This document shows positions 10,760 to 18,270 of a DNA stretch of 25,366 bases, piece by piece; position 1 is the stretch's first letter; each line of letters opens with the position of its first letter. The notes under the pieces were generated by a model that was not told the origin of the DNA, searched no databases, and saw only the letters and a program-made list of their open reading frames with translations. The stretch spans positions 1 to 25,366 of the IMG/VR virus record IMGVR_UViG_3300032321_000593; one strand, given 5' to 3'. Both the position numbers and the translations under genes were made by a program. The stretch is from a virus (Duplodnaviria; Caudoviricetes).

Positions 10760-11779
10760 TTAAGAGGTTTGTCCAAACTGAAGGATTACGCTATCAGTTC
10801 GGCCTGTGGTGAAGTTCAAAGGAGCTTTGTTGTATGAAGTATCAAATGAAACTTCAAACTCCAAAGAAACGTCCTGCGAATTACCGTTGGATGCGCTGGT
10901 GTCAGCACGCTGAGCATAACCATGAACAGCAAATGTGTAACCGGCAAAACTGAAAGTGCCGTAACCACCAACGAAACTGTTGTAGTCACCGTATCCGTTT
11001 CTGTTTTGCTGTGGAATCCAGTTAAGAGCTGATGCGGACTGCGATGGCATTGCTAAAACGATACCATCTGCATAGTTGGCATCATTAAGCTCAACTGATT
11101 CAACAATACGAAGGCCGGCAAACTGAAATGCCGTGTTGGTTGCATTGCCTGCCCCCTGGGCAATAAGCCTTTCAGCAGCTACTTGCATATTGCTATCGGC
11201 GATAACATCAATTTGCCCACCAAAATAGTTTTGGCGCATTACTGATTTCAAACGCTGATAGAAAACAATAGCATTGGTTGCATCTATGTCGATAGCATTG
11301 TTTGCAGCAGTGAAAGTTCCGCCTTTAAGGCCTGATGGCTGCTGAGTGGCACGCTGAGCACGTAGATAAGCGATTGCTTCGGTTTCTTTGTCTTCCAATA
11401 CGTTCATGCAAGCCTGCATCATTTTATTGGCGAAAACAGTATTGAAATCAAATACGGATCTGTCAAGCAGCTTCAAAGAAATTGCGAACTTATCTGATTT
11501 GGTAGTCCAGTTAAGGGTTATTTTTTGGCTGTCATCTATAGTTCCAGTGTGATTGTGGGTTCTTGTAGAACCACTTGAACGCTTTGTGCGAGCAAGCAAA
11601 TGGGCTTCTATAGCCCTGTCTTCCCTTGTGCGAAGGGTTTCAGCTCCCATGATGAGTGCATCATTTGAGGACAACAGTCCAAAGGCTGGTGCAGGCTTCA
11701 TCCTCATTTCGGGATTTGCGTAAATTGCATTCACCATCGTTTGAGCGGTGAGCAAGTTCGATACATCGAAATTTGCCAT
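10760..11779 (-). CDS. Major capsid protein (339 aa from MANFDVS)
   Basis: Follows the scaffold; size and composition fit an HK97-fold capsid; A/T-rich start context before the ATG at 11779. Confidence 0.85.
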   Translation of the reverse strand: MANFDVSNLLTAQTMVNAIYANPEMRMKPAPAFGLLSSNDALIMGAETLRTREDRAIEAHLLARTKRSSGSTRTHNHTGTIDDSQKITLNWTTKSDKFAISLKLLDRSVFDFNTVFANKMMQACMNVLEDKETEAIAYLRAQRATQQPSGLKGGTFTAANNAIDIDATNAIVFYQRLKSVMRQNYFGGQIDVIADSNMQVAAERLIAQGAGNATNTAFQFAGLRIVESVELNDANYADGIVLAMPSQSASALNWIPQQNRNGYGDYNSFVGGYGTFSFAGYTFAVHGYAQRADTSASNGNSQDVSLEFEVSFDTSYNKAPLNFTTGRTDSVILQFGQTS

Positions 11780-11810
11780 TATTAAAAATTTAAAATGTTT
11801 TGAAAAGTGG

Positions 11811-11901
11811 TTGAGGTCTATGTGGGCGGCGTCTTGCCCTGGTGTTGCCCTGCGTCTTGGGCGGTTAGCTTTTGAGCGATATCTTGCTCTGTAGACCACA
11901 A
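11811..11901 (-). promoter_or_regulatory. Structured 5' leader of capsid gene: four-way junction with three AAGAYRYM-loop hairpins
   Basis: GAGC-AAGAUAUC-GCUC (11889-11874), GCCC-AAGACGCA-GGGC (11862-11847), GGGC-AAGACGCC-GCCC (11839-11824), enclosed by GGUCUA/UAGACC. Confidence 0.75.
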
Positions 11902-11955
11902 TATTAAAACAAATAATTCAAAGTAATAAAAATTACAACTTTATTTTTTTTGCAA

Positions 11956-11987
11956 ATAAAAATGCCTCCTGTAGAAACAGGAGGCAT
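11956..11987 (-). terminator. Intrinsic terminator between scaffold and capsid genes
   Basis: Perfect 11-bp stem AUGCCUCCUGU-UUCU-ACAGGAGGCAU followed by UUUUAUUU on the minus strand. Confidence 0.8.
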
Positions 11988-12019
11988 ACCCTAAAATAAA
12001 CAATCTATGAAAACAATCT

Positions 12020-12835
12020 TTAGCTCATTACAAATCCATCCACTTTTGCGGCTTCCTGCACTGCTTGGCTGAACTCTTGGCCAAGTAAACTCTTTCCTTC
12101 TGCAATAAATTTTGCCTTTAATGCAGTAAGTGAACTGGCTGATGCACCCCCTCCATCACCGGCACCACGTCCGCCAGCACCGGCGCCTTCAACCGGCGCT
12201 AACTTCTTTTCTGCTATAAAAGCACTGATCACATCTTTTGGAGCTGTTGCATTACCAAGTTTATCAGTAAGCTTTGCGCCTGCTTTGTAAAACACGGTTT
12301 TGCTGTCTTCCATTTTTGCCTCATAGCCTGATGCCTTCATTAACTGAATAACATCATCTGCACCAAGGGCAGGGCCTTTATCACCAAAAGAAGGGATGTG
12401 TTTATACAGCTCGCTGTTTACACGAATACTATTGACCTCAGCATCTTTGGCTGCGATCTGAGATTCATAGTCTGATACGGTTGTGGTAAGGGTGGCTACT
12501 TTCGTTTCCAACTCCTTCACTTTTTTATCAGGCTCAATTTTTGCATCAGCAATAACCTTGGCTGCTTTTGCTTCAAGCAGTGCTGCAACTGTTTTACCGG
12601 TAAATTCAAGCCCTTCAGCTTTTTTTACAGCATCAACTTCCATTTCAATGCCGGCAGCTTTACCTTCTTTGTAGCTGTTGTTCTTCAGCGTCTTTAGATC
12701 GGATTCGCTAAAAGTCTGAAGGTTGGCATCTATTTCAATATCTGTTTCAGCCTCGGCTTTGATAGCTGATTCCAAGTCTGCCTTTTTGATTTTAAGCAGT
12801 GTGGCAATCTGCTCCAATGTTTGGTTTTTAAGCAT
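12020..12835 (-). CDS. Capsid scaffolding protein (271 aa from MLKNQTL)
   Basis: Lys/Glu/Ala coiled coil, Gly-rich linker GAGAGGRGAGDGGG and short C-terminal helix; directly before the capsid gene. Confidence 0.8.
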   Translation of the reverse strand: MLKNQTLEQIATLLKIKKADLESAIKAEAETDIEIDANLQTFSESDLKTLKNNSYKEGKAAGIEMEVDAVKKAEGLEFTGKTVAALLEAKAAKVIADAKIEPDKKVKELETKVATLTTTVSDYESQIAAKDAEVNSIRVNSELYKHIPSFGDKGPALGADDVIQLMKASGYEAKMEDSKTVFYKAGAKLTDKLGNATAPKDVISAFIAEKKLAPVEGAGAGGRGAGDGGGASASSLTALKAKFIAEGKSLLGQEFSQAVQEAAKVDGFVMS

Positions 12836-13088
12836 CTGCTTTGGTTTCAGGTGATAAATACATGATTGACTGGAGTCCATCGGATGAGGCGGAACCATCG
12901 TTGAGTACATCAGCTTCTTCTTGTGTAATCTTCACGCAAGAACGTAGCAATTTGTTTTTTACCCATTCGCCTTTTTCCTTTTCCATCCTCCACTCCTCAA
13001 AGTGTGCAGCCTTTTCAGGTTGTGCTGCTTGTGGTTGCTCTTGCACAATTTCCTTTTCAGGTTGTGCTGCTTGTGGTAATTTTCCCAT
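12828..13088 (-). CDS. Hypothetical protein (86 aa) with duplicated PQAAQPEK
   Basis: ORF between portal and scaffold; its stop overlaps the scaffold start. Confidence 0.7.
   Translation of the reverse strand: MGKLPQAAQPEKEIVQEQPQAAQPEKAAHFEEWRMEKEKGEWVKNKLLRSCVKITQEEADVLNDGSASSDGLQSIMYLSPETKADA
13010..13077. repeat. Perfect 26-bp direct repeat, 42-bp period
   Basis: CCTTTTCAGGTTGTGCTGCTTGTGGT at 13010-13035 and 13052-13077. Confidence 0.95.
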
Positions 13089-13107: not shown

Positions 13108-14763
13108 TTACTGAATTACTGTAGGCTCTGGTGCCATTTCCTGCGCTGCCGCATACTCTTTCAAGTTATCTCTGAGCTGCTGCTCATCCAATGCCGTCAA
13201 TTCTGCCTGACTGAGCATTGAAAGCCATTCACCATAAAAGATTTTCTGATTGAGGACTAACGGTCCAACTCCAAGTGCCTTTACCTTCTCCGCTGTCATG
13301 TGTACAAATGGCTCAACCTTGGTAAGCTTCTGCATTATGTATAATTTCACGGGATCAGTTCCGTATTTCGCCTCGTAATAATCATACAGCATATCGTCAA
13401 GTGCGCTAATAGCAACACCTTTGAGTTTGGCATCCTGATACTTTTCCCACAACACATCGGGGCCTTCAAGCATAAACCTTCTGCCATAATTTACAGATGA
13501 ACCTTTGTAATCGGGCTGTATGTTTACGGCTACAGATAAATCAATCAGGAATTTGTGCCGCTTCTCAGCCATCCTTGCTACTATTTCAAGCACATCCGCC
13601 TCAGGCTTTATATCCTGTACAATCTGTGTAGCCGTCTTAATCCCTTCCTGCTTCACATCAGCCTGTACACCCCATCTTGTGTACCTCATCAATGATTCGA
13701 GCATCTCCATGCTTTCGCCAGCAATCTTGTGATATACCTCAGATGGCGATACATAACCGGCAACATTTGGCGTTAAAACCTGCTCATCCTTTGATGGCCA
13801 TTCGAGCAGCTTAATATCCGATACCTTGCTCATGAAGTTCTTACCGGTTCCCTTGCAATCAGGGCAGTCCTTACCATCTACATACTTTGTACCGCCACAA
13901 GTTGAGCAGCTATCTGCATACTCCCAATACTTTGGATAAGCATGAAGGAAATCATGTGTAATTTTAATGCTGCCTTTTAAAAGGAATTCATCTGCCAGCT
14001 CAATCACCTGATCAAAGAATGACATCATCATTCCACCATTGCTCTCGCTTAGGATATCGCTATTGAGGATAGCCGGCACCTTGCCGAAATAGTTTATCAA
14101 TGGAGAATGTAGTGTTACCGATTCATCTTCAACCTTGACGTAAACATCCTGAGAATCATCAACAAGCCTGTAAACAGTATCATCCTCTTTCAATCCAATA
14201 GCTTTCTTCTCTTTCTTGCTCGTAACAAAGAATACAAACTCAACCTGAGAACCATTGCATAGGTATTCGTGGATATTGACAACCGATTTGAAAGTGGGGT
14301 AGCATATTGAATTACCCATCTGTTTCTGCCTTTTTGCCTCCTGAGTAGGGAACAGCTCCATCATCATTATACCCATTGGATCATCAATCATTCTATACCG
14401 CCACATACTACTGAGAACATCTTTTACACTCATGCCGCTGCGGATATTGGATGCAACCTGCCTTGCTTTATCTTCCTGCTCCCCTTCAAGGTTATAATAA
14501 ACAGATCCTCCTCTTGCACTAAACACTTTATCGAGTGGGCGGCTGAGGCGGGTAAATAAATCCCTGTTGCTTTTGGCGTACTTAACTCTTAGCGTCTGCA
14601 ATGCAGGAGCTTCAAAACCTCCAATAACAGGCAGGTAATTAGACATTTGCTCACCATAGAGATGCATTCGCATCTTTTGCCGGTATTCTCTGGCTTTAAT
14701 CAGCGTTGGAGCCGATTGATTTTCTTTCAAAACTTTTTCAATCTGATCAATGGTTAGTATCAT
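13108..14763 (-). CDS. Portal protein with inserted CxxCxGxG zinc-finger
   Basis: 551 aa directly after TerL; mostly helical; CSTCGGTK...CPDCKGTG insert. Confidence 0.85.
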   Translation of the reverse strand: MILTIDQIEKVLKENQSAPTLIKAREYRQKMRMHLYGEQMSNYLPVIGGFEAPALQTLRVKYAKSNRDLFTRLSRPLDKVFSARGGSVYYNLEGEQEDKARQVASNIRSGMSVKDVLSSMWRYRMIDDPMGIMMMELFPTQEAKRQKQMGNSICYPTFKSVVNIHEYLCNGSQVEFVFFVTSKKEKKAIGLKEDDTVYRLVDDSQDVYVKVEDESVTLHSPLINYFGKVPAILNSDILSESNGGMMMSFFDQVIELADEFLLKGSIKITHDFLHAYPKYWEYADSCSTCGGTKYVDGKDCPDCKGTGKNFMSKVSDIKLLEWPSKDEQVLTPNVAGYVSPSEVYHKIAGESMEMLESLMRYTRWGVQADVKQEGIKTATQIVQDIKPEADVLEIVARMAEKRHKFLIDLSVAVNIQPDYKGSSVNYGRRFMLEGPDVLWEKYQDAKLKGVAISALDDMLYDYYEAKYGTDPVKLYIMQKLTKVEPFVHMTAEKVKALGVGPLVLNQKIFYGEWLSMLSQAELTALDEQQLRDNLKEYAAAQEMAPEPTVIQ

Positions 14764-17191: not shown

Positions 17192-17440
17192 TTAATAAGT
17201 AGCCGCTTTCACAGCCCACATTGCTGATTGTTCAGCAGCAATCATTGCCAAGTCTTTCAGCGTTAACCATTCTTTGAGTTCATCATCAGTCCATTTAGGA
17301 TTTCCTGCTGCACCATCAATCAGGTCAATTAAGTTAGCGGCAGCGACTTTGATGTCATTTACATAATCGCTTTCTGATGGGTTGTGATTAACCCTTACAC
17401 GTCGTTCTCCAAGTGTTACTAATTTTTCAATCTGTTCCAT
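17192..17440 (-). CDS. Probable Acb2/Tad1-like helical-hairpin immune-signal sponge (anti-defence)
   Basis: 82 aa, LGERRVR..NPS start, two long helices and C-terminal A..EQSAMWAVKA, matching my recollection of the ExAxMW motif of the Acb2/Tad1 hairpin family. Confidence 0.6.
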   Translation of the reverse strand: MEQIEKLVTLGERRVRVNHNPSESDYVNDIKVAAANLIDLIDGAAGNPKWTDDELKEWLTLKDLAMIAAEQSAMWAVKAATY

Positions 17441-17775: not shown

Positions 17776-18270
17776 TTATATTTTAATTTCTTCTTCTAAC
17801 TTGTAAAGCATTTTTACAAGTTGGTTAATTTGCGCAGCACTTGCAGCACTTGCAGCCCTTGCATCACTTGCAGCAGCCCTTGCATCCCATGCAGCACTTG
17901 CAGCAGCCCATGCAGCAGCACTTGCAGCAGCCCATGCAGCAGCACTTGCATCAGCCCATGCAGCAGACAATTCTTCATCTGTAGCTTTACCGTTGGCGTA
18001 TTTTTCCGCAACATTACAAGCCTCAATACTTCTTTCATCAGGTTTATCTACCAGCTTCAATGCTTCTCTTGCACACCATACAGCGAATAAACGTAATGTC
18101 TTTGCATCAATAAACTTGTCTCGAAGTACAACCCAAAATCTGTCTTTAGCCGGGCAATTCTCCACGTTTAAAATATCTATTACCGTACCCGTCCAGTTTT
18201 CGGGTAAAAACTTTGCAGGGTCGTAGCATGGGTTTAAATCTCTGATTTCCTGTAGTGTGATTTGTTTCAT
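17776..18270 (-). CDS. Imm5-like helical protein with Ala/Trp repeat tail
   Basis: LRLFAVWCAREAL..DERSIEACNVAEKYANG..EELSAAW pattern resembles the Imm-5-like domain; AAAWAAAS repeats. Confidence 0.6.
   Translation of the reverse strand: MKQITLQEIRDLNPCYDPAKFLPENWTGTVIDILNVENCPAKDRFWVVLRDKFIDAKTLRLFAVWCAREALKLVDKPDERSIEACNVAEKYANGKATDEELSAAWADASAAAWAAASAAAWAAASAAWDARAAASDARAASAASAAQINQLVKMLYKLEEEIKI
17834..17966. repeat. Coding tandem repeat (24/21/9-bp GCA-rich units)
   Basis: GCAGCAGCACTTGCAGCAGCCCAT units and degenerate shorter variants. Confidence 0.9.

Follow-up and report, generated by a model that had tools for sequence, protein, structure and literature searches.

Gene organization at the locus

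The window, i.e., the whole 25,366-nt stretch of Caudoviricetes DNA that was analysed, contains head genes on the minus strand in the order terminase, portal, 86-aa gene, scaffold-like gene, terminator-like hairpin, hairpin element and capsid gene, the last of which heads a long tail operon (Table 1). An in-frame GTG would allow the capsid ORF to extend across the whole leader (10760-11899, minus strand; 379 aa), and one close database entry (P0002) is likewise 379 aa long. The capsid has 438 homologues; since most of those listed were 338-342 aa long, the GTG start was taken as a miscall, likely a gene-calling error.

The scaffold-like protein, encoded between the portal and capsid genes, was modelled as mostly helical with a long helix at residues 104-144. 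Two of 35 members of its family matched the head scaffolding protein phrog_206 (best E 3e-11); the window's own protein showed no phrog_206 match, and its model gave no Foldseek match. The 86-aa gene product contains a 50-residue beta-beta-alpha-beta domain with near-invariant W, R and L-N that was present in all well-covered relatives, and its model (pLDDT 86.6) gave no clear fold match (best Z 3.8).

Table 1. Positions in the window of the head genes and of the features around the capsid leader.
Feature	Position	Strand	Remarks
Portal gene	13108-14763	-	
86-aa gene, between portal and scaffold	12828-13088	-	Conserved; no family or fold match
Likely scaffold gene, 271 aa from ATG at 12835	12020..12835	-	Proposed leader binder
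Scaffold helix 44-74; S54 (12674-12676), Y55 and E57 (12665-12667) co-vary with loop type	12614..12706	-	Predicted helix
Terminator-like hairpin and U-tract, 3' of scaffold gene	11962..11987	-	
Likely Bacteroidota -7 box TAATATTG, differs from TAnnTTTG at one position and lies 9 nt 5' of hairpin 1	11899..11906	-	Putative; alignment read by eye
Hairpin 1, GAGC-AAGAUAUC-GCUC	11874..11889	-	
Hairpin 2, GCCC-AAGACGCA-GGGC	11847..11862	-	
Hairpin 3, GGGC-AAGACGCC-GCCC; ends 44 nt before capsid ATG	11824..11839	-	Predicted probability 0.99
Outer helix 3' arm, pairs with 11892-11901	11811..11820	-	Minimum-energy fold; lineage-specific, not conserved
Major capsid protein gene, 339 aa	10760..11779	-	PHROG 7231 virion structural; 28.6% identity to annotated Pan5 major capsid, same gene order

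Three further observations were made in the window. An 82-aa protein (17192-17440, minus strand) contains an Acb2/Tad1 hairpin domain (PF24729, E 1.1e-8) and is, judged from this match, likely an anti-CBASS/Thoeris signal sponge. Tandem low-complexity repeats encoding an Ala/Trp/Ser-rich peptide (17840-17990, minus strand) lie in a 164-aa ORF, and these repeats were the only other place in the window with three shared-loop hairpins. Besides, a hairpin in the portal gene, GTACAC-AAGATGGG-GTGTAC (13665-13684, minus strand), has a loop that resembles the leader loops; it was not seen again in relatives under a stricter pattern.

The leader in the window

The first-pass annotation of this DNA had described three 4-bp hairpins with different stems and the same loop, lying in a GC-rich island that ends about 30 nt before the capsid ATG. 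The three hairpins with differing stems were found on the minus strand as described. Their loops are alike and share AAGAY, but they are not identical. The element ends 31 nt before the ATG at 11779, and its GC content is 0.54 compared to 0.23-0.35 in the flanks. The minimum-energy fold of the sense strand consists of the three hairpins and an outer helix (-29.4 kcal/mol, z -2.4), with 2 of 200 shuffles as good, compared to a z of only -1.2 for the plus strand. When the 91 nt were dinucleotide-shuffled 5000 times, three 4-bp hairpins with common first four loop bases never arose. The statement that no named motif resembles the element agrees with the Rfam 15 scan of the window and six related loci, which gave 0 matches at the gathering threshold; the best weak matches at 11700-12050 fell on the terminator.

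The enclosing helix that had been proposed is present in the minimum-energy fold of the window, but it did not hold as part of a conserved four-way junction. In a phage whose capsid is 97% identical, two changes in the outer helix are left unmatched (L001/L009), other relatives were found without an enclosing helix, and the 5' arm overlaps the likely -7 box. In other relatives, GGUCU/AGACC folds locally into a hairpin on the 3' side of the last unit.

The motif TAnnTTTG is given as the Bacteroides -7 box in PMC7366714. In the relatives, TAnnTTTR was found approximately 6-12 nt before the first hairpin in an alignment read by eye. From such a TAnnTTTR-like box just before hairpin 1, the leader in the window would likely be the 5' end of a capsid transcript. 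The predicted start site lies a few bases ahead of 11889, and most of the outer helix's 5' arm would then not be part of the RNA.

Conservation of the leader in related phages

Capsid searches, after removal of duplicates and of fragments without upstream DNA, gave 51 distinct loci including the window; locus L112 was added later, beyond the 51. The four relatives with named bacterial records were all from Chitinophagaceae. L006, recorded as Pseudanabaena phage Pan5, and L007, recorded as Rhodobacteraceae phage LS06, were seen to have the same head module as the Chitinophagaceae-associated phages. The expected conservation of loops and stems upstream of related capsid genes was borne out, with two to four hairpins kept before the start codon. 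Within the 29 loci chosen by eye for window-like loops of 7-10 nt, 78 hairpins were found with the loop consensus A-A-G-R-U-R-C. Their usual number is three, placed near -105, -72 and -42 relative to the start codon; in each of the 29 loci, 37-62 nt separate the beginning of the last hairpin from that codon. The stems vary, the loop core G-R-Y-R is conserved, and loop position 5 is U in 63 hairpins, C in 13 and A in 2. Base 4 of the loop is A or G (A in the window and G in L049, for example), and in every one of the 28 multi-hairpin loci all hairpins have the same base there, compared to a mean of 8.7 loci in shuffles. Likeness within a locus was 79% for loops and 42% for stems. In 21 of the 29 loci, the linker preceding the last hairpin contains a further, unpaired copy of the motif, whose A/G state matches that of the loops.

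In an alignment of 26 leaders (MAFFT, not fitted to structure), two-sided compensatory changes were present in 11 of 12 stem pairs. Paired cells made up 85% of this alignment compared to 60% in shuffles and 52-57% in slid controls, figures whose shuffle counts are not probabilities because the sequences are related. Covariation was 0.65, compared to 0.24-0.25 after a slide of one column. Throughout the 51 loci, a 4-bp stem accompanied 47 of the 61 RRGRYRC motifs within leaders, compared to 38 of 643 elsewhere. That the repeats are double-stranded DNA sites, as their position beside a promoter-like box might suggest, is extremely improbable: the inverted arms vary freely while their pairing is kept, and only the sense strand keeps the asymmetric loop, with 35 occurrences in leaders compared to 3 antisense ones overall. 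The co-changing stems and the one-sided loop support the single-stranded structure that the first-pass annotation had favoured. The element is real, conserved and uncatalogued, and probably a cis-acting RNA.

In approximately 14 other loci the repeated loops are short, being GGU-type triloops or tetraloops in some and different short loops in others; among these loci is the isolate Pan5, whose capsid is ~28% identical to that of the window. LS06 has one hairpin, and no hairpins were visible on inspection of the P12002L and L072 leaders. A DNA pattern scan of viral contigs gave 20 loci, i.e., five known leaders and 15 loci without a capsid or scaffold gene nearby; genome samples at the phylum, order, class and genus levels gave no further locus. 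The L102 contig is without a capsid gene and contributes no test.

In many loci hairpin 1 starts directly after a terminator and a promoter-like box, and in the window it also precedes the long tail operon. This arrangement would suit hairpins that do not serve capsid translation but recruit a factor, possibly the scaffold, to act on the long late message, either on its transcription through antitermination of the nut/boxB kind or on its stability by protecting the 5' end. We consider this improbable, as the gaps of L051, L063 and L065 measure only 66-111 nt and show no terminator on inspection but contain two hairpins, which makes the start codon the fixed reference point, and as the distance of the last hairpin to the start codon is kept in all 29 loci. 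Eight loci (L014, L019, L023, L050, L057-L059 and L064) were seen to contain an extra 0.4-1.5 kb between scaffold and leader, often with small genes, and in these loci the leader remains beside the capsid gene.

Loop type is scattered over the capsid tree. L032 and L036 have a common leader sequence and capsids that lie apart on the tree, a sign of mosaic exchange. One contig (G377:C5) was seen to contain two members 77 kb apart (L052 and L062), one in which loops and scaffold are both of the A type and the other of the G type, a natural pair on which orthogonality could be examined.

Covariation of loop type with the scaffold-like protein

Loop labels were assigned by eye before the scaffold was looked at. 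In the discovery set of seven A and nine G loci, scaffold residues 68 and 54 split the loop types. Residue 68 (D/K), the top column at discovery, broke down in distant loci; residue 54 held in seven of the seven distant loci that were added afterwards, and residue 57 emerged as its mirror. The strict set comprised 23 loci, L007, L030, L036 and L051 being left out as single or mixed. Within this set, E54 was present in 10/10 G-loop loci and 0/13 A-loop loci, and D/E57 in 12/13 A-loop loci and 0/10 G-loop loci, so that column 54 splits the types fully and column 57 nearly (0.91). Traits with an equal number of changes were simulated 400 times on each of three trees; two such columns never arose together, and a single perfect column was reached in 7, 2 and 1 of the runs. 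Residues 54 and 57 lie one turn apart in the same predicted helix.

The neighbouring residue Y55 was present in 22 of the 23 strict-set loci. All 13 loci with tri- or tetraloop leaders, judged by eye and including L112, have a scaffold without Y55. This rule was set down before L112 was fetched, and L112, with four GGU triloops, fits it. L067 has A-type loops and neither Y55 nor an acidic residue 57, and L030 and L036 have Y/F55 with mixed loops.

Eight other neighbouring proteins, all within the head-tail block, served as controls. The best columns of the capsid, cement, adaptor and tail terminator proteins reached only 0.33-0.53, and the 86-aa protein had no covarying column (best 0.46). The suggestion that the 86-aa gene is absent from leaderless phages was dropped, as look-alikes were seen by eye in LS06 and P12002L. 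For the tube and 139-aa genes, perfect columns were obtained from just 10 and 8 loci, respectively. Portal columns 211/215/228 looked perfect at first, but they shifted on realignment and failed on held-out loci. Loop-type changes needed on the trees were 2 for the scaffold (20 rows), 10 for the capsid (28), 6 for the 86-aa protein (19) and 7 for the cement protein (15), counts that rest on unequal row sets. Within the earlier proposal of a landing pad for the scaffold, the capsid or a regulator, the covariation points to the scaffold; the capsid and the 86-aa protein gave no signal.

The match could also reflect shared ancestry of neighbouring DNA, the leader being an operator bound by another phage or host protein. 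We regard this as unlikely, although several observations would fit it. There were only 3-4 independent A/G switches, and for this reason a sign test cannot reach significance (p 0.25). Ancestry can yield perfect columns, as the portal also gave one, which rested on 16 informative loci and was matched in 8 of 300 simulations, and the likeness of the L032 and L036 leaders despite their separate capsids is a sign of mosaic exchange. However, the portal signal was broken by both held-out A-type loci (L018 and L019; E215), at which the scaffold signal held. The covarying helix is encoded ~640 nt upstream of the stop codon, and linkage alone should make the 3' half of the gene track loop type best. 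The leader-proximal C-terminal half in fact required three loop-type changes, compared to one on the tree of residues 46-72, which includes the two covarying columns themselves. Lineage-specific loop changes would, besides, suit a host protein poorly.

The tie to a head-assembly protein and the multivalent loops might also fit a leader that is cut out, or carried along, as a pRNA-like structural RNA nucleating prohead assembly. This reading, which the first-pass annotation had raised as a processed RNA of head assembly, found no support and appears very improbable, as neither the closing helix nor a 3' end is conserved, and as the loops are not self-complementary across types, base 7 being mostly C when base 4 changes. 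Kissing loops were rejected, as no loop-base covariation was found.

Possible function of the leader

From the comparison of sequences, we propose with moderate confidence that the scaffold binds the leader and controls capsid output. Free scaffold would bind the hairpin loops of the capsid leader, likely raising capsid synthesis, and several scaffold N-terminal helices may dock on the G-R-Y loops, the copies being used multivalently. The putative code would pair E54 with G4, S54 and an acidic residue 57 with A4, and loss of Y55 with triloops. Acidic residues are unusual as RNA contacts, and the deciding scaffold residues are acidic. Capsid protein would draw scaffold into proheads, and because of this pull free scaffold would signal a shortage of capsid protein. 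The fuller proposal is put forward only tentatively: that the scaffold may be a sequence-specific RNA-binding regulator with a residue-to-base code, which would switch on capsid translation, receive nascent capsid and set the scaffold:capsid stoichiometry.

The direction of control is the weakest step of the explanation. Given binding, we would give activation, stabilisation or hand-over of nascent capsid slightly better than an even chance, and repression would be rather doubtful; activation fits a logic of supply. Repression would deepen the imbalance that is sensed. PMC6847099 describes Bacteroidota as without Shine-Dalgarno control and initiation in Bacteroidetes as tuned by mRNA structure. 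The 3' strand of the last hairpin had a competing partner nearer the start codon in 21/29 loci, compared to 11/29 in shuffles. When the last hairpin was forced, the start region opened in nine loci, closed in three and was unaffected in the window, in which a competing fold near the start codon was absent.

The balance of scaffold and capsid in tailed phages is known mainly from the autoregulation of P22. In this family, the RNA element and a candidate binder can both be named, and the swap involves two residues and one base; a short peptide and a hairpin of 20 nt would make a cheap test of the candidate. The proposal, if true, would assign a function to the N-termini of scaffolds and offer a general hypothesis on capsid leaders that are not catalogued. 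It would also supply orthogonal protein-RNA pairs of natural origin with which genes could be controlled in Bacteroidota.

Comparison with known systems

Leaders bound by CsrA/RsmA present GGA in hairpin loops, on several short variable stems near the start codon. The leader shares with them the variable-stem hairpins with one purine-rich loop near the start codon and the single-stranded copy in the linker. In contrast to CsrA/RsmA sites, its core is G-R-Y and not GGA in all loci examined except L074 (GGA triloops), the core differs between phages, and there is no Shine-Dalgarno overlap. No match to the CsrA family was found among the 29 ORFs of the window, a record that may be a fragment.

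Lambda boxB is a single pentaloop accompanied by boxA and read by the arginine-rich peptide of N. The short GC stem, the purine-rich loop and a predicted alpha-helix as candidate reader are similar. Unlike N-boxB, the leader contains two to four copies tied to the start codon, and covariation involves the residues S/E/D and Y; unlike lambdoid nut sites, its loops are of 7-10 nt or triloops and not a GNRA-like pentaloop. It differs from the phi29 pRNA in that the outer helix is not conserved and the loops are not complementary.

The GP20-a/b motifs are reportedly structured RNAs located before phage head genes. The candidates of PMC10690425 are likewise structured RNAs ahead of phage head genes; the neighbours listed there (HK97, N4 and podovirus capsids, and Phage_GP20) are unmatched by this capsid or scaffold. 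No report of this leader was found in the literature searched, and PMC10690425 and PMC5737381 could hold it as an unnamed candidate.

By analogy, the leader likely works as a translational operator read by a virion-assembly protein, for which the N-terminus of the P22 scaffold is the nearest precedent. In P22, the scaffold restricts its own synthesis and its free pool is set by the coat protein. The N-terminus of the P22 scaffolding protein has been implicated in translational control (10.1101/2022.12.13.520362). In 36 loci, hairpins with the motif cluster ahead of the capsid gene; no recurring hairpin of the leader type was found before the scaffold gene, the 12 outside matches being scattered. 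As in P22, a scaffold N-terminus would be the candidate for translational control and the free pool would be set by the capsid protein; unlike in P22, the site precedes the capsid gene and not the scaffold's own gene.
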